A DNA stretch of 13,971 nucleotides from a virus: the UHGV virus genome UHGV-1842250; one strand, written 5' to 3'. The notes below the pieces were generated by a model, which did not search any database, was not told where the DNA came from, and worked only from the letters and a program-made list of their open reading frames with translations. This document shows, in pieces, positions 3,458 through 12,711 of the stretch. The position numbers were made by a program, and so were the translations under genes. Position 1 is the first letter of the stretch, and each line of letters begins with the position of its first letter.

Positions 3458-4399
3458 TTACATAGATGTTTCGTTTAATTCTTCTCGACGAACGCTGTAA
3501 ACGTCGGTGGCTTTTGCCAGCAGTTCGTCATCATCTGAAAGTTTTTGTGCAATGTATTTGTAAGCCTTATCCAGTTCGGAGACAGTGCTGTAATTCATCG
3601 CTGCGCTGGTAAAGGCCATCAGCATTTCTTCTGGATCACGGCTATCCGATTTACGCGTTTGCTCATCAGGCTTTTTCGCTGGTTTAGCGTTGATCAGACT
3701 GTTCATTCCCGCAGCAGTGGTCGTTTGCGGAGTAATGTCTCGCTCAACGCGCGGTGCCGTTTCCTGTAATTCGTCTGGGGTGTAGACGCCCATGATTACG
3801 TCAGGACAGTGCAGGCGAGACCAGCGTTTTGTCGCAAGGTATGCGAGTTGTTGTTTCGGATCACTGGCCCAAAGTGTGGAGTTTCTTACCTGTGCTTGAG
3901 ACAGCATTAACTCAAGCACTCGAGGTTGATCCTCGCCCTTCATGGTTGCCCATACGCGAACACCGCAGCCTTCTTCGTCTTTTAGAGTCCAGCCTGGTGC
4001 GATATATGGATTGCCGTTTTTGGATGTTTTCTCAACAAACTTACCGATCACGCGTTCCCACGGCCCAAACCACTCGTAGTTGATGCGATCTTTTGTTGGC
4101 GACATCGTTGAGATAACTGCGTTTACTAATTGGGCTTCATAACCTAGCGTGCCGTTCACAACATGGGTTTTCTGAGCCACGGCAAACGGGTTCATTCCCC
4201 ACTGCGCAGCCTGCATTGCCACGGCCATGCAATCAGCTGGTTTCCCGGCGAGGTGCGCCGGTACCGTTACGCGGCTTTGCGCCATTACCTCGGCGAATTT
4301 CATCAGTTGGTTCAAGCCGTCTGGGCTGAAAATAGTTGCAGCAGTTCCAGCGATTGCTGTGTCTACTGGTGCGTTGATGTTTGCGATGTCGTTGCTCAT
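3458..4399 (-). CDS. bet: Single-strand annealing protein, RecT/Red-beta (Bet) family
   Basis: 313 aa. The segment ETAPRVERDITPQ resembles the lambda Bet region ERQPERDITPV, and the gene sits directly downstream of an exonuclease gene as in the lambda exo-bet pair. Start ATG at 4399 has AGGA upstream and overlaps the exonuclease stop (ATGA). Confidence 0.85.
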   Translation of the reverse strand: MSNDIANINAPVDTAIAGTAATIFSPDGLNQLMKFAEVMAQSRVTVPAHLAGKPADCMAVAMQAAQWGMNPFAVAQKTHVVNGTLGYEAQLVNAVISTMSPTKDRINYEWFGPWERVIGKFVEKTSKNGNPYIAPGWTLKDEEGCGVRVWATMKGEDQPRVLELMLSQAQVRNSTLWASDPKQQLAYLATKRWSRLHCPDVIMGVYTPDELQETAPRVERDITPQTTTAAGMNSLINAKPAKKPDEQTRKSDSRDPEEMLMAFTSAAMNYSTVSELDKAYKYIAQKLSDDDELLAKATDVYSVRREELNETSM

Positions 4400-4926
4400 A
4401 TGTACATATCCTGTTTGCGTGCCCACTCAGGGCGTTTAATGATTTCCACACCGCCCCATTCATCATTGATGCGGCATTCGTGATAGGTATTCAGATCCCG
4501 GCGGAACAGAGCGTGCCCGGCATCGACATCCTGCGCATCCAGCTCGAACACGCGTACCGGATACCGACCACAATCAATGCTTTCGCTCACGGCAAGAAAG
4601 AAAAAACCATGCGGCTGACCAGTAACCCTCATTGCGCCTTCGCGGTACATTGCGTCCTGCACGTGGTAGCGGAATTCCTCGATGTGGCGTGCAAAACGGT
4701 CCATATCTGCAACCTTTTTCACGTCGACGATCACGTTGTGCTCGTTCAGCCATTTGTCTGGACGAATTCGGCACAACTCACCCGTCTCTTCATCGTTCCA
4801 GTACATTGATGCTTCGCAGTAACCAGGTGCTTCCAACATCCAGCGTGCCGCCGGATGAGCCATTGCGCTATCACGCATAAGCTCCAGTTTCCGCCACTGC
4901 TCGGCATCAAGTACCGTAATCACCAT
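4396..4926 (-). CDS. PD-(D/E)xK exonuclease, C-terminal part (gene interrupted by a frameshift)
   Basis: Contains the nuclease core motifs RIRPD ... VIVDVKKV. This reading frame is open from 5130 to 4396, but its first ~55 codons overlap the N-terminal fragment's frame and look non-coding; 4926 is the first internal ATG. The partner fragment is 4937..5212. Confidence 0.7.
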   Translation of the reverse strand: MVITVLDAEQWRKLELMRDSAMAHPAARWMLEAPGYCEASMYWNDEETGELCRIRPDKWLNEHNVIVDVKKVADMDRFARHIEEFRYHVQDAMYREGAMRVTGQPHGFFFLAVSESIDCGRYPVRVFELDAQDVDAGHALFRRDLNTYHECRINDEWGGVEIIKRPEWARKQDMYI

Positions 4927-4936
4927 ATCCGCCACA

Positions 4937-5212
4937 TCACGAAGCCTCTTCGTCAGCTTTACCTTGTTTCGTCCGACGATCGAATTTCGGTGAAACAATG
5001 AAGCGTTTGTCGAACTCTCCAGGCTCCAGAAGCAGACAGTGCAATGCGGTTCCCATATCCAGTGCAGACTTTTTCTCTTCGTCTTCTGGTGCTGCCTGAA
5101 CCCATTTAAGAAGCGCCGGATTCTTGGCAACCATGTCCAGTTGCGACTTACTCACGCCGTCACCGGCGTGGTAGTCTTCGTTGCTGATGTCGAAATAAAT
5201 TCCCGGTTTCAT
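4937..5212 (-). CDS. PD-(D/E)xK exonuclease, N-terminal part (ends at a premature stop after a probable frameshift)
   Basis: 91 aa beginning MKPGIYFDISNEDYHAGDGVSKSQL ... GTALHCLLLEPGEFDKRF, which looks like the N-terminal region of phage Cas4/RecB-like exonucleases. Good SD (GAGGGA) before the ATG at 5212. The frame stops at 4937 while a second frame continues the nuclease domain. Confidence 0.7.
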   Translation of the reverse strand: MKPGIYFDISNEDYHAGDGVSKSQLDMVAKNPALLKWVQAAPEDEEKKSALDMGTALHCLLLEPGEFDKRFIVSPKFDRRTKQGKADEEAS

Positions 5213-5508
5213 GCCGCGTCCCTCTGTCCATCAAGCTGATCCGCCAGATCCCAGCGGGCGATAATTGCCATTGCCTCGCGCCGGTAGGCATCCATAAGTT
5301 CTTCGAACTCAGGGCTGTCTTTAGCTGCCTCCAGCACTTCCTGGCGAACTCCTTTGCCTGTTACAGCGTCAAAAGTTGAGGCCAGTTGATGAAGCCGGAT
5401 GCTCTCGATCAGTTCAACTTGTCGGTCATATAACTGTTCTGACAGGCGGTAGTCCTTGTCGAATGCCAGCATGATTTTTTGAAGATTTTTCTGCTGATTA
5501 ACGTTCAT
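5209..5508 (-). CDS. Hypothetical early protein, function unknown
   Basis: 99 aa from the ATG at 5508 (MNVNQQKNLQK...), which has a strong SD (GGAGG, 8-nt spacing). The stop overlaps the exonuclease ATG (ATGA). It sits where lambda carries N, but is not arginine-rich, so not N-like. Confidence 0.6.
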   Translation of the reverse strand: MNVNQQKNLQKIMLAFDKDYRLSEQLYDRQVELIESIRLHQLASTFDAVTGKGVRQEVLEAAKDSPEFEELMDAYRREAMAIIARWDLADQLDGQRDAA

Positions 5509-5510
5509 TA

Positions 5511-5663
5511 TCAGCCCTCCCATATCTCGTTATCGTTGGCTACATCGCGAGCTTCTTTGCTGACGAAAGCCCACTTAATGCCTTCCTGTAAGGTGCGGAA
5601 CTTCCAGCTCATGAATCCGCATGCAGTAACGCAGTACCAACCGTTGATGATTTTCCACTGCAT
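5511..5663 (-). CDS. 50-aa micro-ORF, first gene of the leftward operon, possibly cIII-like
   Basis: Translated by hand as MQWKIINGWYCVTACGFMSWKFRTLQEGIKWAFVSKEARDVANDNEIWEG. It lies about 27 nt downstream of the predicted leftward promoter, has GAGG upstream, and stops 2 nt before the next start. Loose resemblance to lambda CIII (MQYAIAGW..AGC ... RKLRDGWKRLI). Too short for the ORF track. Confidence 0.35.
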   Translation of the reverse strand: MQWKIINGWYCVTACGFMSWKFRTLQEGIKWAFVSKEARDVANDNEIWEG

Positions 5664-5682
5664 AACTTGTTACCTCGGTCTG

Positions 5683-5697
5683 TTACCGTTGAGGTAA
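5683..5697. promoter_or_regulatory. Operator site, perfect palindrome TTACCGTTGAGGTAA, promoter-proximal in the leftward (PL-like) promoter
   Basis: Exact TTACC-N5-GGTAA. It abuts the candidate -10 of the leftward promoter, and an extra TTACC half-site sits at 5670-5674. Confidence 0.6.
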
Positions 5698-5725
5698 TAA
5701 TTATGCGTATATGGTTTGGTGTCAA
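5697..5725 (-). promoter_or_regulatory. Candidate leftward early promoter (PL analogue)
   Basis: On the minus strand: perfect -35 TTGACA (5725..5720), 17-bp spacer, -10 AATTAT (5702..5697). Flanked by operator sites at 5745-5759 and 5683-5697, the same layout as the promoter at 8778-8806. Confidence 0.5.
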
Positions 5726-5744
5726 TAGATATGAGTTAAAAAAA

Positions 5745-5759
5745 TTACCCGTTAGGTAA
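5745..5759. promoter_or_regulatory. Operator site, perfect palindrome TTACCCGTTAGGTAA, promoter-distal in the leftward promoter
   Basis: Exact TTACC-N5-GGTAA, centred 62 bp from the site at 5683-5697. Confidence 0.6.
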
Positions 5760-5772
5760 TCGAATAGGCAAT

Positions 5773-5795
5773 AAAAAAGCCGCCATAAGGCGGCT
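5773..5795 (-). terminator. Rho-independent terminator after the repressor gene
   Basis: On the minus strand, stem GCCGCC / GGCGGC with 4-nt loop followed by a U-tract (plus strand AAAAAAGCCGCCATAAGGCGGCT), about 20 bp after the repressor stop codon. Confidence 0.65.
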
Positions 5796-5816
5796 TACTT
5801 ACTGAAAAATATGATT

Positions 5817-6401
5817 TTATTGTTTGTTTTTTTCGTTCTGGTTGATGACAAATTCAATGTAACTTTCGATCTTTGCCTTCTCTGTTTCAGGTAACAATGC
5901 GTAGCGCGAGCGGTCATAGTTGATAGTTGCAGGGTCATGCGGATGAATCAGTAGTTCATATCCGTGACGCCCGAATGCAGATGCAACATTCTCCAGGGTG
6001 GAAATGGAAACGCTGACCTCATTGTTTAACAGGCGGCTTATTGTCACCTGGGCGACGCCGGATGCGCGGTGAAGTTTTCCCTGAGTTGAAAGGTCGCGGC
6101 TTTCACTCATCCAGCGTTCCAGGTTGTGAGCTGCCAGCTGACCAATGTCGCTTGGGCCGACAGGCTGAAAACCTTCCTGAGAAAGCGAGCGATCGATATC
6201 AAGCCAGTTACGGGGTTTATTGGCGGCAGCTTCAATTTTTCGCGCAACCTGGTCGCCGATAACTTTCTTGCCAAGAGCCCAGCGGTTTACCAGATTTGCC
6301 TGAGTTCCAAGTTTTTCTGCCATCCGCGTCTGAACACCATTGAATTCACGGTCGATCAAGTCGTTGAGATTTTGCCTGCGGACGTCCTGGATACTTTTCA
6401 T
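5817..6401 (-). CDS. Phage repressor (cI analogue) with two HTH domains and no recognisable LexA/S24 autocleavage domain
   Basis: 194 aa, divergent from the Cro-like gene across an operator-rich spacer. HTH-like segments QTRMAEKLGTQANLVNRW and ASGVAQVTISRLLNNEVSVSISTLENVA. No S24 peptidase serine-lysine dyad or Ala-Gly cleavage context seen. No SD before the ATG, so the transcript may be leaderless. Confidence 0.8.
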   Translation of the reverse strand: MKSIQDVRRQNLNDLIDREFNGVQTRMAEKLGTQANLVNRWALGKKVIGDQVARKIEAAANKPRNWLDIDRSLSQEGFQPVGPSDIGQLAAHNLERWMSESRDLSTQGKLHRASGVAQVTISRLLNNEVSVSISTLENVASAFGRHGYELLIHPHDPATINYDRSRYALLPETEKAKIESYIEFVINQNEKNKQ

Positions 6402-6456
6402 TTTCTGGAAAATCGCCTCATATATGAATCAGTAGATGATTCAATTTAAAGCAATA

Positions 6457-6519
6457 TTACCCAACAGGTAAATGCACCTCATAGGTAACTATCCTTGATT
6501 TTTGTTACCTTATGGGTGA
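6457..6519. promoter_or_regulatory. Immunity-region operator cluster of three sites between the repressor and cro-like genes, with divergent promoters
   Basis: Sites at 6457-6471 (TTACCCAACAGGTAA, perfect), 6474-6488 (GCACCTCATAGGTAA) and 6505-6519 (TTACCTTATGGGTGA). Candidate rightward promoter: -35 TTGATT (6494-6499) or TTGTTA (6502-6507), -10 TATTAT (6525-6530), overlapping the third site. Confidence 0.6.
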
Positions 6520-6555
6520 ATATTTATTATCTGAAATAAATATCAGGCAATAGCT

Positions 6556-6786
6556 ATGAGCGATAACGGACATTTCGATTTCAAAAAGCACTGGCTTGCA
6601 CTTACTCCGGATGAGCGTGAAGCCTTCGCACAGGAAGCCGGAACGACGAGTCACTATATCCAGACTCACTTAACAGGTAAGCGCAAAATGCCAGGTAAAG
6701 TATTGATGAATGGGCTTTTTAAAGCCTGTAAAACAAGACAATGGCTGCGCTCAAAAGCAGAACTGGCATACTTCTTCTACTCATGA
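6556..6786 (+). CDS. Cro/CII-like small HTH regulator, first rightward gene
   Basis: 76 aa at the cro position of the divergent immunity cassette, with an HTH-like segment EAFAQEAGTTSHYIQTHLTGKRK. Followed immediately by an intrinsic terminator. Confidence 0.75.
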   Translation: MSDNGHFDFKKHWLALTPDEREAFAQEAGTTSHYIQTHLTGKRKMPGKVLMNGLFKACKTRQWLRSKAELAYFFYS

Positions 6787-6807
6787 TATCCAGCTACAAC
6801 CCTCTGT

Positions 6808-6830
6808 AGACCGCCACCCGGCGGTCTTTT
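6808..6830 (+). terminator. Rho-independent terminator after the cro-like gene (tR1-like position)
   Basis: Stem AGACCGCC (6808-6815) / GGCGGTCT (6820-6827), loop ACCC, T-tract at 6827-6830. Confidence 0.6.
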
Positions 6831-6841
6831 CATATCTATTC

Positions 6842-6856
6842 GTACCTCAAAGGTAA
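6842..6856. promoter_or_regulatory. Operator-like site GTACCTCAAAGGTAA between the terminator and the replication genes
   Basis: 9 of 10 match to TTACC-N5-GGTAA, with the ACCTCA core shared with the sites at 5683, 6474 and 8806. An AT-rich stretch with weak promoter-like hexamers follows (6870-6920). Confidence 0.4.
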
Positions 6857-6934
6857 TAAAAAACCAAATATGGTTGATCAAATTTTCCAATTGTGCAAAA
6901 TAGCCAATATCAATAACAAAAAGGGGCGGAAAAA

Positions 6935-7147
6935 TTGAAGATAGTAACCAGAATGGAGGCCGCAAAAGCCGGGTTAAATCGCTATTTCACAGGAAAGCGG
7001 TGCCGTCACGGCCATCTCTCTGAAAGGTATGTTCTGAACGGAACATGTGTTGAATGTGCAATGAATAGCGCCAACCGCCATCGTAATGAATTTGCTTGTG
7101 CACTAAAGAGTGCAAGAGGGGAAACCTATGGCAAGCAGCTGGATTAA
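6935..7147 (+). CDS. Small Zn-ribbon protein (C-x3-H...C-x2-C), function unknown
   Basis: 70 aa from a TTG start at 6935, preceded by AAGGGG; the internal ATG at 6953 has no SD. Motif RCRHGHLSERYVLNGTCVEC. Its end overlaps the start of the O-like gene by 20 nt. Confidence 0.55.
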   Translation: MKIVTRMEAAKAGLNRYFTGKRCRHGHLSERYVLNGTCVECAMNSANRHRNEFACALKSARGETYGKQLD

Positions 7148-7958
7148 GGTTGAAGTTATCACTCCTGATAAACCTGAAATTTTTCAGATAGCAGAAATTC
7201 TGGGTATTGATCCAGATGCTGTTCTTGGAAAGCTGGTTCGTATATGGGCATGGGCTGACCAGCAAACAATAGACGGTAACGCTGGCAGCGTTACAAAAGG
7301 AGTACTTGATAGACTCGCTTTTATTACAGGATTTGCTGACGCCCTCATTAGCGTCGGATGGCTTGCTTATCATGACGGCAAACTAATTCTTCCAAACTTT
7401 GAGCGACATAATGGAGAATCATCGAAAAAACGTGCACTTACGAATAGAAGAGTGGCAGAGCATCGAAAACGAGTAACGCAAAAAGTAACGCCAACAGCGT
7501 TACAAAAGGAGTTACCAGAGGAAGAGGAAGAGGAAGATATATATAAAACCCCACACATAGCGCACGTGCGCGAGGGTGCTCCGACCAGTGAAGCGAACGG
7601 TATGCCGTTGCAGGTGGCTGAACCTGAATTTCTGGATGGCCTGAGTGAACCCATCGGGAAATTTCCGATGACCGATGGCTGGCATCCGTCGCCGGATTTT
7701 CGACGGCGTGCTGCGCTGTGGGGAACGGCCCTGCCGGAACCGGAATTTACACCTGCTGAACTTGCTGCATTCCGGGATTACTGGATGGCTGAGGGCAAAG
7801 TGTTCACGCAGGTTCAGTGGGAACAAAAATTCGCCAGGCACGTAAATCATATCAGGGGAAAATCAAAAAACGCCGGGAAAAGCGATGAGCTTGACTGGAA
7901 TAACACTGACTGGATAGAAGGGGTGTGGGATGAAATCAACTCCAGAACTTCTCAATGA
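7128..7958 (+). CDS. Replication initiator (lambda O analogue) with DnaT-like C-terminal domain
   Basis: ATG at 7128 preceded by SD GAGGGG. C-terminal motif PSPDFRRRAALWG...PEPEFTPAELAAFRDYWMAEGKVFTQVQWEQKFARHV resembles the DnaT/primosomal C-terminal domain. Iteron-like repeats and an AT-rich patch lie inside the gene, and the lambda-P-like gene follows directly. Confidence 0.8.
   Translation: MASSWIKVEVITPDKPEIFQIAEILGIDPDAVLGKLVRIWAWADQQTIDGNAGSVTKGVLDRLAFITGFADALISVGWLAYHDGKLILPNFERHNGESSKKRALTNRRVAEHRKRVTQKVTPTALQKELPEEEEEEDIYKTPHIAHVREGAPTSEANGMPLQVAEPEFLDGLSEPIGKFPMTDGWHPSPDFRRRAALWGTALPEPEFTPAELAAFRDYWMAEGKVFTQVQWEQKFARHVNHIRGKSKNAGKSDELDWNNTDWIEGVWDEINSRTSQ
7276..7548. repeat. Candidate replication origin inside the O-like gene: iterons, 18-bp exact direct repeat, (GAGGAA)x3 and AT-rich patch
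   Basis: GTAACGC at 7276, 7473 and 7485; its inverse GCGTTAC at 7288 and 7497 (12-bp periodicity in the second cluster). CAGCGTTACAAAAGGAGT is repeated exactly at 7286-7303 and 7495-7512 and is read in different codon frames (AGSVTKGV vs PTALQKEL). CATCGAAAA(A)ACG at 7420 and 7461, GAGGAA x3 at 7518-7535, GATATATATAAAA at 7536-7548. Confidence 0.6.
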
Positions 7959-8706
7959 GTACGATCGCTTACGTGAGCATGGTGTTGCTGTGCATGAAGA
8001 GCGGCGTGACAGCAATGGCAAAAAGGAGCAGGTTGCTAGAATTTTCAATGAACTATTTGTCCAGTTACAGGCTGCATTTCCTGCAAGCGTTTCGACCATA
8101 AGGGAGCAGAACAAACTTAATGAATTCCGTAAGCAATGGATGCTTGCGTTTCTGGAGAATGGGATCACAACAATGGAACAGGTTAACGCTGGTATGCGCC
8201 ACGCCCGCGCCAGTGAATCTCCGTTCTGGCCGTCGCCTGGGCAATTCATCAAGTGGTGCAAAGACAGCAAGATGGTTCTTGGCGTCACCATTGACGATGT
8301 GATGGCGGAGTTTCACCGGTACAGCAAGGAAAAAAGTTTATATCCTGGTGGTCCCGAAAGATTCCCGTGGCGACATCCGGTTATGTACTGGGTCGTATGT
8401 GATACCCGCCGTGCAATGTATCAGCGCCAGCTTAGCGAGATTGAGGTTGAGAAACACGCGCGCAGGCTGCTCGATGATTGGGCGAAAAAGGTGGCTTCCG
8501 GACAGCAGATACCCGATCCGGTGATCAGCATACAGGCAAAGCCAGAACCCATGAGTACACCTCCGGACACAGGGAGAGACGTTTACCATCCACCAGGGCG
8601 AAGTTTCGGGTGTATGCCTAACGCCGCCACCCTGGGGGGAATAACACCGGCGCAGTGGCTGATGGAGGAATACAGGCGGGGAAAGGCGGCAGGATTTATC
8701 AAGTAA
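7930..8706 (+). CDS. P: Replication protein P-like DnaB helicase loader
   Basis: Strong resemblance to lambda P over the block VARIFNELFVQLQAAFPAS...FRKQWMLAFLENGITTMEQVNAGMRHAR...PFWPSPGQFIKWC (lambda P has ...ATFPAS...RRQWVLAFRENGITTMEQVNAGMRVAR...PFLPSPGQFVAWC). Start overlaps the end of the O-like gene. Confidence 0.93.
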   Translation: MKSTPELLNEYDRLREHGVAVHEERRDSNGKKEQVARIFNELFVQLQAAFPASVSTIREQNKLNEFRKQWMLAFLENGITTMEQVNAGMRHARASESPFWPSPGQFIKWCKDSKMVLGVTIDDVMAEFHRYSKEKSLYPGGPERFPWRHPVMYWVVCDTRRAMYQRQLSEIEVEKHARRLLDDWAKKVASGQQIPDPVISIQAKPEPMSTPPDTGRDVYHPPGRSFGCMPNAATLGGITPAQWLMEEYRRGKAAGFIK

Positions 8707-8712
8707 TACCAG

Positions 8713-8730
8713 CGCGATAGCGCATTTTTT
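8713..8730 (+). terminator. Weak candidate intrinsic terminator after the P-like gene
   Basis: 4-bp GC stem (GCGC / GCGC) with GATA loop followed by seven T residues. The stem is short, so this is low confidence. Confidence 0.3.
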
Positions 8731-8743
8731 TACGTCTTGATAA

Positions 8744-8758
8744 TTACCTGCTAGGTAA
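8744..8758. promoter_or_regulatory. Operator site, perfect palindrome TTACCTGCTAGGTAA, promoter-distal in the promoter for the accessory block
   Basis: Exact TTACC-N5-GGTAA, centred 62 bp from the site at 8806-8820, the same spacing as the pair at the leftward promoter. Confidence 0.6.
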
Positions 8759-8777
8759 TAAAATGTTCTAAGATCTA

Positions 8778-8806
8778 TTGATTTCGTGTCTTATGTGGTT
8801 TTTAAT
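8778..8806 (+). promoter_or_regulatory. Candidate sigma70 promoter for the accessory block, duplicated PL-type architecture
   Basis: -35 TTGATT (8778-8783), 17-bp spacer, -10 TTTAAT (8801-8806). The flanking sequence CTATTGA and the operator spacing match the leftward promoter at 5697-5725. Confidence 0.55.
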
Positions 8807-8820
8807 TACCTCAGGGGTAA
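8806..8820. promoter_or_regulatory. Operator site, perfect palindrome TTACCTCAGGGGTAA, overlapping the -10, start region and SD of the gene at 8824
   Basis: Exact TTACC-N5-GGTAA. Its GGGG also serves as the ribosome-binding site for the ATG at 8824. Confidence 0.6.
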
Positions 8821-8823
8821 ATC

Positions 8824-9168
8824 ATGAGAAAACAGATACAGGCTCTTGGTCGACTCAAAACAGGCCAGATGAACAAAACAGAATCTGCGTATTGCCAGCA
8901 CCTTGAGCAGCGTAAACGTGCAGGGGAAATCGCCTGGTATCGATTCGAGGGTATCAAGTTGCGGTTAGCTGACAACACGTTCTATACGCCCGATTTTGCT
9001 GTGATGCTCGCCACCGGCGAGATGGAACTGCACGAAGTGAAAGGTTTCTGGACCGACGACGCCAGGGTGAAAACCAAAGTCGCCGCAGATCAGTATCCGT
9101 TCCGAATCATCGGGGTAACGGTTAAGCCAAAGAAAGCAGGTGGTGGCTGGAACATCGAAGAGTTCTGA
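8824..9168 (+). CDS. DUF1064-like phage protein with PD-(D/E)xK-like nuclease motifs
   Basis: 114 aa with YTPDF ... HEVKG, consistent with a D ... ExK nuclease core. Family name is from memory. Confidence 0.7.
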   Translation: MRKQIQALGRLKTGQMNKTESAYCQHLEQRKRAGEIAWYRFEGIKLRLADNTFYTPDFAVMLATGEMELHEVKGFWTDDARVKTKVAADQYPFRIIGVTVKPKKAGGGWNIEEF

Positions 9169-9229
9169 ATCGACGATCTTTTTAGTTATCAATGTAATCA
9201 ATAAGTTATGTGGATAAGCGAGGGTAAAG

Positions 9230-9724
9230 ATGGAAAGTAATATCAAAGGGTTAGTTGCCGCCGGGCATGAGATGGCTTCGGAACTGAAAGCAGAATGTGG
9301 TGCCGTTGATATGCGCAGTGTGGCAAAGCTGATCAGCGATTTGGCAGCGCAACTGGAAGTGCAACTGGTGCGTGCTAATGCGCTGGCCGAAGACCACCAG
9401 AGAGCGATTGAGTCAATTAAGCAGGCTGATTCGGCTGTTAAGTTGGCACACGAGAAGTTTTCGGCGCTGGCGGCGGAGAATGCGGGGCTGAACAAGTTCA
9501 TCAAAGATGATTGCTGGATTTGGGATGACAAAAGTGAAGAGTATTTCGACGCTGCTGACTGTATGCCAGAAACCCCAGCCACCGACGCCTCCCTTGCTGA
9601 AGTGCGGGCGCAGGGTGTGGAAGCATTCGCCAATAGCCTGAAGGTTGCCGGTGGTCATGAACATCCATATTCAGCGGTAGCCAACGAGTTCGCCGACCAG
9701 CTTCGCAAAGGAGGCAACCAGTGA
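9230..9724 (+). CDS. Hypothetical coiled-coil protein, possibly ead/Ea22-like
   Basis: 164 aa, SD GAGGG before the ATG, predicted helical N-terminus. The family assignment is tentative recall, not verified. Confidence 0.55.
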   Translation: MESNIKGLVAAGHEMASELKAECGAVDMRSVAKLISDLAAQLEVQLVRANALAEDHQRAIESIKQADSAVKLAHEKFSALAAENAGLNKFIKDDCWIWDDKSEEYFDAADCMPETPATDASLAEVRAQGVEAFANSLKVAGGHEHPYSAVANEFADQLRKGGNQ

Positions 9725-10353
9725 GCGAAATTAATTACCAGGCACTGCGTGAGGCGGCGGAACGTGCAATTCCAGCAATGGAACGCCTGTTAATGTTGCC
9801 AGTTGATGATGATCTGATAAGCGAACAGGAACTTAAAGATTACGGCGTGGATATTGATGCGCTCAACGCCTTCAAATTTCTGACCGGACCAGAAACCGTG
9901 CTGGCGCCGCTGGATGAACGGGAAAGAAACCAGCAATACATCAAATCCCGCGACCAGGAGAACGAGGAAATTGCGCTAACGGTTGGGAAGCTGCGTGTTG
10001 AGCTGGAAGCAGCAGAATCAAAACTCAACGAGCAGCGTGAGTATTACGAAGGTGTTATCTCGGATGGAAGTAAGCGCATAGCAGAACTGGAAGCGCGGGA
10101 AATAAAACCAGCCAAAGGTGAAGTTCTGGTCGTTGTATCTGGTTTTACTGGTTGCGGAAAAAGCGCCATTGCCGGGGAAATAGAAATCGCGATGAAGGCT
10201 ATTGGTGTACCGGTTAAGTGGACTAATGGCGATGCAGAAAAGCGCATGACTGGCGCTGACTGGCTGACTGCGATTGAGATGTACAAACCAACTGTGCGCA
10301 TCGTGGAAGTTAATGTGCCACGCGCCGCTGGCATTCGCATCAAAGGAGAGTGA
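9721..10353 (+). CDS. Hypothetical coiled-coil protein, possibly ead/Ea22-like
   Basis: 210 aa from a GTG start that overlaps the previous stop (GTGA), with AGGAGG upstream. N-terminus MSEINYQALREAAERA, a glutamate-rich coiled-coil centre, and a GCGKS-containing C-terminus. Confidence 0.55.
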   Translation: MSEINYQALREAAERAIPAMERLLMLPVDDDLISEQELKDYGVDIDALNAFKFLTGPETVLAPLDERERNQQYIKSRDQENEEIALTVGKLRVELEAAESKLNEQREYYEGVISDGSKRIAELEAREIKPAKGEVLVVVSGFTGCGKSAIAGEIEIAMKAIGVPVKWTNGDAEKRMTGADWLTAIEMYKPTVRIVEVNVPRAAGIRIKGE

Positions 10354-10354
10354 G

Positions 10355-10546
10355 ATGAACGGACAAATCTCAATTGTTCGACCGGGAGCATGTGACGATC
10401 GCGAGATACGACTGATTATTCGTCTGGCGATGGGGAAAACAATAACTGCTCTCATTACTCCTGAAAATCTCGCATTAGCATTAACAGGAAAGTCAGACCT
10501 TCCATTAGAGCTAAAGCTGCGAAATGTTGAGATTAAGGTGAAATAG
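10355..10546 (+). CDS. Small hypothetical protein (63 aa)
   Basis: Start refined to the ATG at 10355, with SD AGGAGAG and 1 nt after the previous stop. The track's N-terminal extension overlaps the upstream gene. No family recognised. Confidence 0.5.
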   Translation: MNGQISIVRPGACDDREIRLIIRLAMGKTITALITPENLALALTGKSDLPLELKLRNVEIKVK

Positions 10547-10548
10547 CT

Positions 10549-11391
10549 ATGACCACTATTACCAAAGAACGTATCGAATTATTCATTAAAAATCCGCTTG
10601 ATAACGGGCTTACTCGTGGCGAACAAATGGAACTGGCACGAATTGCACTGGCATCACTGGAACGCGAACTGATTCGCCACGAGCATGCCAAATGGTCTGA
10701 CTCCACATTTGGCTGCGTTGGCCCCATTGGTCCACTGAAACACCTCTCAAAAGAGGCTCTGGAAGCCGCAGCCGAACCAGACGATCTCAGCGAGTGGGCT
10801 GATATGCATTTCCTGTTGTGGGATGCACAGCGCCGTGCTGGCATCAGCGATGCTGAAATTACCGCTGCTATGGAAGATAAATTGAAGATCAACATGGAGC
10901 GCCAGTGGCCTGAACCAAAAGATGGTGAGCCTCGCTTGCACATTAAAGAACCCGGCAACTCTCCGGTAATTCCGGATGGTTTATCCACGGTATGCGCTGA
11001 GGCTTATCAGGTTGTAGGAGTTATGGCAGATGCGCTTGGTGTATTCGGTGATGCAGCAGTACAGAAAGTTCTGGATAACCTGTCACAGCAAAAACTTGTT
11101 CACAGAGATGTGCTGCCGTTCTCGCTTCCGGTAACTCCGGATGGTTGGGTTATGGTGCCGAAGAAACTAACCGCTGAGAACGGCGCTAAGGGTGTGCTAT
11201 CCGGTGAATTTTCAGAAACTACGTTTATAAGCTGCCCGGAATGCTTTGGCGATGATGATTGCGATACCTGTGACGGGAGCGGACGAATTGAAATTAAAGT
11301 ACCAGTCACGTGGACGACCATAAAATCCATTTGGGATAAAGGTATTGCGCATTTTGCAGCAAAACCGCCGCAGGAGGTTAACCGTGGCTAA
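10549..11391 (+). CDS. MazG-like nucleotide pyrophosphohydrolase domain protein (DUF550-like) with C-terminal Cys-rich Zn-ribbon
   Basis: 280 aa. The N-terminal helical segment (GEQMELARIALASLERELIRHEHAKW ... EWADMHFLLWD) resembles the MazG/DUF550 all-alpha NTP-pyrophosphatase fold. C-terminal CPECFGDDDCDTCDGSG is a metal-binding knuckle. Starts 2 nt after the previous stop. Confidence 0.55.
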   Translation: MTTITKERIELFIKNPLDNGLTRGEQMELARIALASLERELIRHEHAKWSDSTFGCVGPIGPLKHLSKEALEAAAEPDDLSEWADMHFLLWDAQRRAGISDAEITAAMEDKLKINMERQWPEPKDGEPRLHIKEPGNSPVIPDGLSTVCAEAYQVVGVMADALGVFGDAAVQKVLDNLSQQKLVHRDVLPFSLPVTPDGWVMVPKKLTAENGAKGVLSGEFSETTFISCPECFGDDDCDTCDGSGRIEIKVPVTWTTIKSIWDKGIAHFAAKPPQEVNRG

Positions 11392-11665
11392 CCTGCAACT
11401 TATCCTCAAAGGTGAATACTTCGATGCCATGATTCGCGGAGAGAAAACGGAAGAGTATCGCCTGTGTAATGACTACTGGAATAAGCGAATTATGTTCCGG
11501 GAGTATGACCGCCTGATTATCACAAAGGGATATCCGAAGCGCGACGATTCCAGCCGTAGAATTGATGTTCCGTATGACGGATATGAAATCAAGACAATCA
11601 CACATCCGCACTTCGGAGATAAACCGGTAAAGGTGTTCGCGATAAAGGTAAATATTGATGGCTAA
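11384..11665 (+). CDS. ASCH/DUF3850-like PUA-fold domain protein
   Basis: GTG start at 11384 with a perfect SD (AGGAGG, 6-nt spacing), overlapping the upstream stop. N-terminus LQLILKGEYFDAMIRGEKTEEYR matches the usual ASCH opening. Confidence 0.6.
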   Translation: MANLQLILKGEYFDAMIRGEKTEEYRLCNDYWNKRIMFREYDRLIITKGYPKRDDSSRRIDVPYDGYEIKTITHPHFGDKPVKVFAIKVNIDG

Positions 11666-11996
11666 ATCAGCAGCAGAGCGCAAAGCCGCTCAGAGAGCCA
11701 GACAAGCTGCATCTGGTGTGCGTAAGCTGGAGATTGTGCTTGATGCTCAGGAAATTGAAATGCTGGAGCGTAACTGTGCCACGCGTCGCCCCGGGCGTGC
11801 GCCTTACGAATTTGGTGAGTATATAGCGTTACTGATCCGCCAGGATGATGCACGCGTGCACGGGCGTATAAAATCGATCAGCAGAACACGTTGCGGTAAG
11901 TGCGGCGAGAGAGTTCCAGTTAATTCATGTCCGTGTAATGGTGACTCACAATGCTGGGTGACTAAAGGCTGGCATGAAACGAAATTAATAGTGTGA
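11658..11996 (+). CDS. Basic N-terminal / Zn-ribbon C-terminal small protein, candidate late-gene regulator
   Basis: 112 aa. Basic helical N-terminus (ERKAAQRARQAASGVRKLEIVLDAQEIEMLERN) and C-terminal CGKCGERVPVNSCPCNG. Last gene before the pre-terminase terminator. The regulator assignment is positional inference only. Confidence 0.55.
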   Translation: MAKSAAERKAAQRARQAASGVRKLEIVLDAQEIEMLERNCATRRPGRAPYEFGEYIALLIRQDDARVHGRIKSISRTRCGKCGERVPVNSCPCNGDSQCWVTKGWHETKLIV

Positions 11997-12004
11997 CATG
12001 TCAC
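11993..12004. promoter_or_regulatory. 12-bp perfect palindrome GTGACATGTCAC overlapping the stop codon of the preceding gene
   Basis: Perfect dyad lying about 40 bp upstream of the terminator at 12046-12071. Could be a protein-binding site. Confidence 0.3.
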
Positions 12005-12045
12005 GAGTAGATTATGCATGATGAATTTGACGGGTTTTGAATACT

Positions 12046-12071
12046 GCCGCCAACTATGGCGGCTTTATTTT
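12046..12071 (+). terminator. Strong rho-independent terminator between the early/accessory genes and the terminase genes
   Basis: 7-bp GC-rich stem GCCGCCA (12046-12052) / TGGCGGC (12057-12063), 4-nt loop ACTA, then TTTATTTT. Confidence 0.7.
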
Positions 12072-12082
12072 GCATGGTACTA

Positions 12083-12115
12083 TTACCACAACGGTAACTA
12101 TTACCACGGTGGTTA
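12083..12115. promoter_or_regulatory. Tandem operator-like sites immediately upstream of the terminase small-subunit gene
   Basis: Perfect TTACCACAACGGTAA (12083-12097) followed 18 bp later by TTACCACGGTGGTTA (12101-12115). Half-sites chain as GGTA-cta-TTACC-N5-GGTAA-cta-TTACC-N5-GGTTA, echoing GGTAACTATCC at 6485-6495. No convincing sigma70 -35/-10 pair nearby. Confidence 0.5.
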
Positions 12116-12711
12116 TGATGCCTGCTGAACCTAAAACCTATAAACGCAAATCAACGCAATTTAAGCCACTAACAGCAATGCAGGAGGCTTATTGCCAGTC
12201 ATACATCAAAACGCCTGAAAACCAGACTCAGGCAGCGATTAACGCAGGATTCTCCCCAAATACAGCGGCAGTTAAAGCCAGTGTCATGATGCGCGATGAA
12301 CGCATTCAAAAACGGATTGCCGAGTTGATGGAGGAGCGCAACAAACGAATGCGCGTCAGTGCTGATTACGTTCTCATGCGCCTGGTGGAGATCGACCAGA
12401 TGGACGTGATCGACATCCTCAACGACGATGGGAGCCTTAAACCAATCCGTGAGTGGCCGAAAATCTGGCGCACTACGCTTAGTGGCTTTGATCTGTCATC
12501 GACCATCATGAACATGAACGAGGATTCGATAGAGACAATCCTCAAAAAAATTAAATGGCCTGACAAGGTGAAGAACCTTGAGCTGATTGGTAAGCATGTT
12601 GATGTCAACGCGTTCAAAGAACGTCTGGATGTTAATGTGAATGTGACAATTGCTGATCGCATAGCAGCAGCCAGGAAGCGACTCAAAGAACGTCAGGATG
12701 GTAATCAGTGA
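12115..12711 (+). CDS. terS: Terminase small subunit
   Basis: Resembles phage small terminase subunits (AYCQSYIKTPENQTQAAINAGFSP...AAVKASVMMRDERIQKRIAEL) and sits directly upstream of, and overlapping, the large-subunit gene. Start taken as ATG 12115 (or 12118); the track's TTG at 12037 would run through the terminator and operator sites. Confidence 0.82.
   Translation: MMPAEPKTYKRKSTQFKPLTAMQEAYCQSYIKTPENQTQAAINAGFSPNTAAVKASVMMRDERIQKRIAELMEERNKRMRVSADYVLMRLVEIDQMDVIDILNDDGSLKPIREWPKIWRTTLSGFDLSSTIMNMNEDSIETILKKIKWPDKVKNLELIGKHVDVNAFKERLDVNVNVTIADRIAAARKRLKERQDGNQ

Follow-up and report, generated by a model that had tools for sequence, protein, structure and literature searches.

A putatively repressor-controlled mosaic early operon in a Uetakevirus genome and its resemblance to the lambda nin region

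Overview

Seven genes (g1 to g7) are packed on the + strand between positions 8824 and 11996 of the analyzed stretch of the UHGV virus genome UHGV-1842250, which comprises 13,971 nucleotides and is referred to below as the window. Sequence comparison, family assignment and conservation analysis suggested that these genes probably constitute a repressor-controlled, post-replication early operon of a Uetakevirus prophage and the functional equivalent of the lambda nin region. A first-pass annotation of the same DNA had described them as seven translationally coupled accessory genes under direct operator control, and as a candidate anti-defence or host-takeover module in the slot where lambdoid phages carry accessory functions. 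The assignment to an accessory slot agrees with the equivalence to the nin region. The lambda nin region, located between P and Q, likewise consists of small, tightly packed and mostly non-essential genes 3' of the replication genes, and includes the junction resolvase Rap/NinG. However, the lambda block is transcribed from pR through N-mediated antitermination and continues into Q, while the block in the window has its own predicted operator-controlled promoter and ends at a terminator.

The proposed unit would consist, in this order, of a weak terminator after the replication gene P, a sigma-70-type promoter containing operator O1, operator O2, the seven genes and a strong terminator before terS. 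In a lysogen, a Rep-type repressor would probably occupy O1 and O2 together and silence the operon, and after induction or infection the genes would be expressed when Rep is missing or has been inactivated by an antirepressor. The g1 product would most likely remove branches from replicating or recombining DNA before packaging, and the g7 product may bind a palindrome at the end of its own gene. The genes g2 to g6 would be exchangeable cassettes from the enterobacterial exo-xis / ea pool, translated from one mRNA by way of overlapping or abutting stops and starts, and would most likely act on host physiology, on nucleotide pools or on the balance between lysis and lysogeny.

Identity of the phage and position of the operon

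Gene order and DNA similarity identify the window as the left portion of a temperate phage belonging to the phiV10/epsilon15 type (genus Uetakevirus). An integrase gene (193-1449) is followed by leftward early genes including the one for RecT, a repressor gene on the minus strand (5817-6401), a cro-like gene (6556-6786), replication genes up to 8706, g1 to g7, a terminator, terS and terL. The nearest matches in DNA searches were phiV10-type phages with 92-97% identity, and no record covering at least 80% of the region was found among the phage records and 5,426 complete E. coli genomes.

The operon lies between the P-like replication gene (ending at 8706) and terS (after the terminator at 12046-12063), on the same strand as both. 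Annotated counterparts in the same slot are p45-p55 of phiV10 and gp43-gp49 of epsilon15, and the position, the strand and the lead-in of terminator, operator and promoter are all shared with these two phages. The last gene is shared as well, g7 being 99% identical to phiV10 p55 and 77% identical to epsilon15 gp49 over 100% of its length. The first gene encodes a DUF1064 protein in both the window and phiV10 (99%), while a RuvC-type Holliday junction resolvase occupies this slot in epsilon15. Ea-type genes fill the middle in phiV10 and epsilon15 as they do in the window, and the particular set and order of the middle genes seen here was absent from 50,697 phage records, the 5,426 complete E. 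coli genomes and the 80 IMG/VR loci examined. The region is a new mosaic variant of a phage region already annotated in phiV10 and epsilon15, and for this reason the finding adds little as it stands.

Gene organization

The seven genes are as follows:

8824-9168, + strand, g1: DUF1064 nuclease of the PD-(D/E)xK type, probable DNA junction-resolving enzyme
9230-9724, + strand, g2: Eae-like protein
9721-10353, + strand, g3: Ead/Ea22-like N-terminal and coiled-coil domain, small C-terminal domain with a Walker-A-like motif
10355-10546, + strand, g4: 63-aa protein, phrog_1222
10549-11391, + strand, g5: EaA-like protein with a MazG-type DUF550 domain and a C4-knuckle C-terminal domain
11384-11665, + strand, g6: protein modelled with an ASCH fold
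11658-11996, + strand, g7: putative DNA-binding protein modelled as ribbon-helix-helix-like plus zinc ribbon

The junctions were read straight from the sequence, and the tight packing reported by the first-pass annotation was found at every junction it had listed. The GTG start of g3 at 9721 forms a GTGA overlap with the stop of g2. The stop of g3 (10353) is separated by 1 nt from the ATG of g4 (10355), and that of g4 (10546) by 2 nt from the ATG of g5 (10549). The starts of g6 (GTG at 11384) and g7 (ATG at 11658) each overlap the preceding gene by 8 nt, as GTGgcTAA and ATGgcTAA, respectively, and g7 stops at 11996. However, g1 and g2 are 61 nt apart; g1 is therefore not coupled to g2, and the chain of coupled genes comprises g2 to g7 at most rather than all seven. 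Translational coupling within this chain is suggested by the geometry of the junctions, which is common in phage operons. A Shine-Dalgarno-like purine run precedes every start by 6-11 nt, and the choice of starts is consistent with full-length profile matches (PF13935 from residue 2 of g3, phrog_1222 over 63 of 63 residues of g4), with the coverage of phrog_625 (1-92) and with 112-aa homologs of g7.

Promoter, operators and repressor

The elements bearing on transcription of the operon are as follows:

5817-6401, minus strand: prophage repressor of the Rep type, presumed binder of ATTACC-N5-GGTAAT operators
8712-8731, + strand: weak terminator-like hairpin after replication gene P, GCGC-GATA-GCGC followed by a T run
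8737-8764, + strand: putative sigma-70-like operon promoter, TTGATA-16-TAAAAT
8743-8759, unstranded: operator O1, perfect palindrome ATTACCTGCTAGGTAAT within the promoter spacer
8805-8821, unstranded: operator O2, ATTACCTCAGGGGTAAA, across the g1 ribosome-binding site, 62 bp from O1
12046-12063, + strand: intrinsic terminator ending the operon, stem of seven pairs (six G-C) followed by a T run, conserved in relatives

The motif ATTACCT-N3-AGGTAAT was detected at nine sites in the window with at most three mismatches, against 0.38 expected. O1 is the only perfect copy and is located exactly between the -35 and -10 elements of the best promoter-like match in the interval 5400-12400 (10 of 12 positions). 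Besides O1 and O2, the motif occurs at 135-151, 5682-5698, 5744-5760, 6456-6472, 6841-6857, 12082-12098 and 12100-12116. It is found upstream of int, the leftward early operon, cro, the replication genes and terS, and essentially every transcription unit seems, on the basis of these sites, to be under direct repressor control.

The pair of operators (ATTACC-N5-GGTAAT) is placed upstream of the first gene at a distance of 62 bp in the window (8743/8805), in epsilon15 (35906/35968) and in phiV10 (35069/35131). An identical 62-bp pair occurs at the leftward early promoter of the window (5682/5744), and epsilon15 also has this spacing at both the leftward promoter and the first gene. The site equivalent to O1 is annotated as repressor-binding in the epsilon15 record (35906-35922), as are comparable sites upstream of terS, gp3, gp20 and the leftward operon.

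Nucleotide diversity (pi) was computed over 59 relatives. The half-sites of O1 displayed pi values of 0.03-0.07 and its centre 0.45; for the operators overall, the values were 0-0.07 in the half-sites and 0.24-0.45 in the centres, compared with 0.05-0.06 at third codon positions of the flanking genes. Conserved half-sites with variable centres are the pattern expected of a dimeric DNA-binding protein. The hairpin at 8712-8731, which is annotated as a putative terminator in phiV10, was invariant (pi = 0). The -35 region was hypervariable (pi 0.24) and the -10 region far less variable. As a separate observation, the -35 region and the operator centres (8733-8753 and 8811-8815) were 4-9 times more diverse than flanking third codon positions, which may be a sign of diversifying selection acting on the strength of the promoter or on the affinity of the repressor.

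The repressor matched the structure of the SPC32H repressor (5D50) over its full length (E 4e-42). Rep has been described as a tetramer binding palindromic sites, and the paired palindromic operators in the window fit a tetramer with two DNA-binding pairs (PMC9638917). The epsilon15 repressor is reported to be only 42% identical (PMC9782041); despite this divergence, the operator half-sites are the same in epsilon15. Motif enrichment, conservation and repressor homology together suggest that the repressor binds O1 and O2. Direct operator control of the operon, as put forward by the first-pass annotation, is thereby well supported at the level of sequence. Such control characterizes this phage group in general, had already been predicted for epsilon15 and is not peculiar to the operon.

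Gene content of 64 related operons

A total of 64 operons were compared, including that of the window, those of phage records and IMG/VR loci found through g7. They displayed 60 different gene orders and contained 133 protein clusters. The genes of the window were distributed as follows:

g1: 62 of 64 operons, always first
g2 cluster: 55 of 64 operons, second
g3: 16 of 64 operons
g4: 6 of 64 operons
g5: 7 of 64 operons
g6: 41 of 64 operons, always directly before g7
g7: 63 of 64 operons, always last

These counts indicate an operon with two fixed anchors and a fast-changing middle, an arrangement that is usual among these phages. The term accessory, applied to all seven genes by the first-pass annotation, is thus appropriate for g2 to g6, but g1 and g7 belong to a conserved core. 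Two anchor genes and a putatively repressor-controlled promoter frame the 133 clusters and make the slot a clean natural hotspot of accessory genes; its cassettes might be searched or screened for genes that modulate the host or counteract its defences.

The first gene as a probable branch-resolving nuclease

The g1 protein passed the cutoff of PF06356 (DUF1064) with 31.1 bits (cutoff 24.7), and its homologs carry a precomputed match to the same family. It matched phrog_190, labelled 'Holliday junction resolvase', with E 6e-43, and it could be aligned to the catalytic core of T7 endonuclease I (YTPDF...E-x-K-G). The residues D57, E71 and K73, which form the D...E-x-K arrangement, and E20 were invariant in 25 g1 homologs. 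The likeness to T7 endonuclease I thus includes the core motif and an acidic residue near position 20; the difference is that g1 belongs to DUF1064 and its similarity is under the threshold of the T7 family. A branch-resolving role is likely for g1, judging from the PHROG label, the motif and the equivalence of its slot to that of the epsilon15 resolvase. The SPP1 protein G44P was considered as a possible example of a DUF1064 resolvase and was dropped, as the G44P paper shows a RusA-like protein.

The exchangeable middle genes

The g2 protein belongs to phrog_492/614, families of unknown function, and is 41% identical to the 'eae-like protein' of phiV10. The g3 protein matched PF13935 (Ead/Ea22) with 123 bits (cutoff 27, E 1.7e-35, profile positions 1-139 covered). 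Its C-terminal 80 residues include a Walker-A-like GFTGCGKS at residues 141-148 (window 10141-10164). Only weak P-loop matches were obtained for this part (APS kinase, E 0.013), and it seems too short for a complete NTPase. Ea22 is pro-lysogenic in lambda and Stx phages, and the proteins of its family have exchangeable C-terminal domains next to a coiled-coil part (PMC7093339, PMC10834534). A further observation is that two longer families, phrog_250 (367 positions) and phrog_14548 (378 positions), are matched by both g2 and g3, each over a different portion. The two genes probably encode one fused protein in some phages, and the GTGA junction at 9721 may therefore be a split point.

The 63-aa g4 protein is spanned entirely by phrog_1222 (63 of 63 residues, E 1.8e-39), a family of unknown function. 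The g5 protein matched PF04447 (DUF550, dATP/dGTP pyrophosphohydrolase) at residues 42-137 with 141.1 bits (cutoff 23, E 1.4e-41). The acidic metal-binding motif of the MazG type, ExxE...ExxD, is intact (EALE...EWAD from residue 69), and a C4 knuckle is formed by C229-x2-C232-x5-C238-x2-C241-DGSG (CPEC-x5-CDTCDGSG). The protein is a predicted deoxynucleoside triphosphate (dNTP) pyrophosphohydrolase; dGTP/dATP pyrophosphohydrolase activity has been described for a DUF5664-DUF550 fusion protein of a Z-genome phage (PMC12884076). The g6 protein did not reach the ASCH cutoff (PF04266, 13.6 bits against 21.2, residues 8-28 only), whereas the best matches of its structure model (predicted local distance difference test, pLDDT, 89) were ASCH structures with the ASCH / PUA-like beta-barrel fold. 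Among the domains named by the first-pass annotation, DUF1064, DUF550, the Cys knuckle of g5 and the zinc-ribbon cysteines of g7 were thus recovered, while ASCH was missed by the Pfam cutoff and recovered by modelling.

Relatives of g3, g5 and g6 with about 95% DNA identity are located between exo and xis of the lambdoid phage ev017, which suggests that these genes are exo-xis / ea-type cassettes sitting in a different operon. The families Ead/Ea22, Eae, EaA/DUF550 and ASCH are common to the window and the lambda exo-xis / P22 ea regions, which also share mosaic architecture and variable C-terminal domains with it (PMC10834534). However, the exo-xis / ea regions sit in the leftward pL operon near int and xis, while the cassettes of the window are found in a rightward operon after the replication genes.

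Weighing of alternative explanations

Several observations weigh against the explanation proposed above. The -35 hexamer is poorly conserved in relatives, which makes the strength and even the exact position of the promoter uncertain. The g1 protein remained below the cutoff of the T7 endonuclease I family (PF05367, 15.4 bits against 29.1), and its matches to T7 endonuclease I in PDB were weak (E 0.2-0.3). A profile of g1 homologs searched against PDB brought no gain over weak matches to T7 endonuclease I and Bax1, and a literature search found no biochemical study of any DUF1064 protein. Diverged homologs of g7 lie beside integrases, in cro-Q regions like that of N15 and in an early region like that of Mu, with unrelated flanks; the role of g7 therefore need not concern this operon.

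The anti-defence module proposed by the first-pass annotation, in which g2 to g6 or several of them would inhibit bacterial immune systems, appears rather unlikely. In such a module the DUF550 enzyme might, for example, degrade signalling nucleotides or act against nucleotide-based defences, and defence components might be targets to which the ASCH or Ea22-like proteins bind. Nucleotide-hydrolyzing and nucleic-acid-binding domains are indeed present, and expression is predicted on derepression and not in the lysogen. The extreme turnover of cassettes between conserved flanks is a pattern that a preprint on accessory genes ties to host-antagonizing genes; Ea22, Ead, DUF550, ASCH and MazG are, however, not mentioned in it (bioRxiv 10.1101/2023.04.06.535777). 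The literature examined on the families found here reports no counter-defence activity, and g1 and g7 are conserved core genes. For the lambda relatives, the documented phenotypes are effects on lysogeny and on the physiology of the host: the studies examined on the exo-xis region describe promotion of lysogeny and changes in host physiology but no counter-defence (PMC7093339, PMC10834534, PMC9239242), the TraR-like Orf73 of lambda being one example (PMC9239242). Host modulation by the cassettes therefore has support at the family level, which anti-defence does not. None of the seven proteins matched a PADLOC model at E up to 0.01, a result that says little because these models cover defence and not anti-defence.

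It is very unlikely that all seven genes serve replication, recombination and nucleotide supply, with a resolvase, scaffold proteins, a DUF550 enzyme that cleans the dNTP pool and an ASCH protein that processes nucleic acids. The operon does follow directly after the replication genes, g1 is resolvase-like, and dNTPs are substrates of DUF550 enzymes in Z-genome phages (PMC12884076). However, g3, g4 and g5 were present in only 16, 6 and 7 of the 64 closely related operons and therefore cannot be required for phage DNA metabolism. Housekeeping roles, which the first-pass annotation had named as evidence that would speak against its module, are suggested for part of the operon, by the resolvase-like g1 and the predicted DNA-binding, regulator-type g7.

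Lysogenic-conversion (moron) genes expressed from the prophage for the benefit of the host share the variable gene content of the operon, but this explanation is hardly credible given that the sole promoter-like site is overlapped by a perfect operator, that a second operator covers the first ribosome-binding site, that no internal promoter-like site was found on the + strand within the operon and that terminators bracket the unit.

The last gene and the palindrome at its stop codon

Within the probable nin-like operon, the conserved last gene is accompanied by a DNA site:

11993-12004, unstranded: perfect palindrome GTGACATGTCAC at the TGA stop of g7

The g7 family is narrow: at 50% identity, it has 152 representatives in a set of 1.84 billion proteins. 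It is highly conserved in enterobacterial prophages. Zinc-ribbon cysteines are located at 79, 82, 91/93 and 99. The N-terminal half, which the first-pass annotation had not mentioned, is ribbon-helix-helix (RHH)-like, with matches to RHH folds that include the MatP-matS complex. The protein accordingly models as an RHH plus zinc-ribbon DNA-binding protein. A Foldseek search of the model against PDB gave nothing significant, and the family profile weakly matched TraR (E 0.024) and YbiI (E 0.032), as examples of DksA/TraR-type C4 zinc fingers with the motif CxxC-x17-CxxC, the second Cys pair of g7 not being CxxC.

Three copies of GTGACATGTCAC occur in epsilon15 (L003: 2142, 19517 and 39612), compared with about 0.04 expected. 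They are placed at, or a few tens of bases from, the ends of the early-right, terminase and structural operons, near terminators. In phiV10 two exact copies and a third with one mismatch were found. In both phages, the copies other than the one at the end of the g7 homolog follow terL and the structural operon. Twelve g7 lineages were compared, namely that of Uetakevirus and eleven diverged homologs (41-61% identity). GTGAC-NN-GTCAC was present exactly at the gene end in six of the twelve, and degenerate copies in two more; coordinates in relatives include L089 5342-5359, L091 3339-3350, L092 3349-3362, L094 3338-3351 and L098 2346-2363. One lineage combines a different palindrome over its stop with an altered beta-strand. 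The palindrome comes after a TAG stop in one lineage, and the reading frame continues through it in another; these two cases indicate that the palindrome is conserved as DNA and not as coding sequence.

About 20 relatives (L013, L041, L068 and about 17 others) carry, directly after position 6350 of these loci, a 186-bp insertion with a small open reading frame (beginning MPKIRYDLEDMRDN). The insertion lies between g7 and the terminator and starts directly after the palindrome, the sequence ending in GTGACATGTCACGA being followed by AGG. The palindrome thus coincides with a mosaic junction.

We infer from these distributions that the GTGAC-NN-GTCAC palindrome accompanying the g7 gene is the binding site of its product. 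The E. coli site matS has the consensus GTGACRNYGTCAC and is bound by the RHH protein MatP. The half-sites GTGAC/GTCAC of the g7 palindrome are those of matS; they are 2 bp apart, however, compared with 3 bp in matS, and MatP has a four-helix bundle and a coiled coil, both of which g7 lacks, while g7 has a C-terminal zinc ribbon. Profile comparison revealed no homology between g7 and MatP (hhalign probability 0.5%, E 0.12). A role of g7 as a dedicated late-gene activator was weakened by the finding that the diverged homologs are not located before terS.

Tentatively, g7 and its palindrome might be a portable, matS-like pair of protein and site that acts through the three copies at operon 3' ends in phages of the phiV10 type. 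Such a pair could control termination, readthrough or late-gene timing, or could organize DNA. No Q or N homolog is annotated in the phiV10 or epsilon15 records. If it exists, the pair would matter in a phage group without an annotated Q or N antiterminator, and it provides a testable lead to how transcription is timed or organized without lambda-type antiterminators.

Other features of the window

Scans of the window against Rfam and for tRNAs gave no match, and nothing useful was obtained from an NCBIfam search. Two further regulatory elements were noted:

9196-9208, + strand: IHF-consensus match (weak) in the gap between g1 and g2, WATCAANNNNTTR
12075-12116, + strand: putative terS (late) promoter, extended -10 TGgTACTAT overlapped by the operators at 12082-12098 and 12100-12116

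The exact IHF consensus WATCAANNNNTTR occurs twice in the window, at 9196-9208 and 9241-9253, both at the g1-g2 junction. The count is not significant by itself, as at least two matches were obtained in 21 of 200 shuffles; an IHF site is annotated in the same gap in the epsilon15 record. Both terS operators carry one mismatch to ATTACC-N5-GGTAAT, and the promoter there is a putative one, the epsilon15 equivalent being annotated as repressor-binding.

On the minus strand at 4396-5212, the exonuclease part of RecE-RecT is split by a frameshift near 4943 relative to the phiV10 fusion p37, with residues 1-90 and 92-268 in different frames. The frameshift may represent a pseudogene or a sequencing error. 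The recT gene (3458-4426) is intact.

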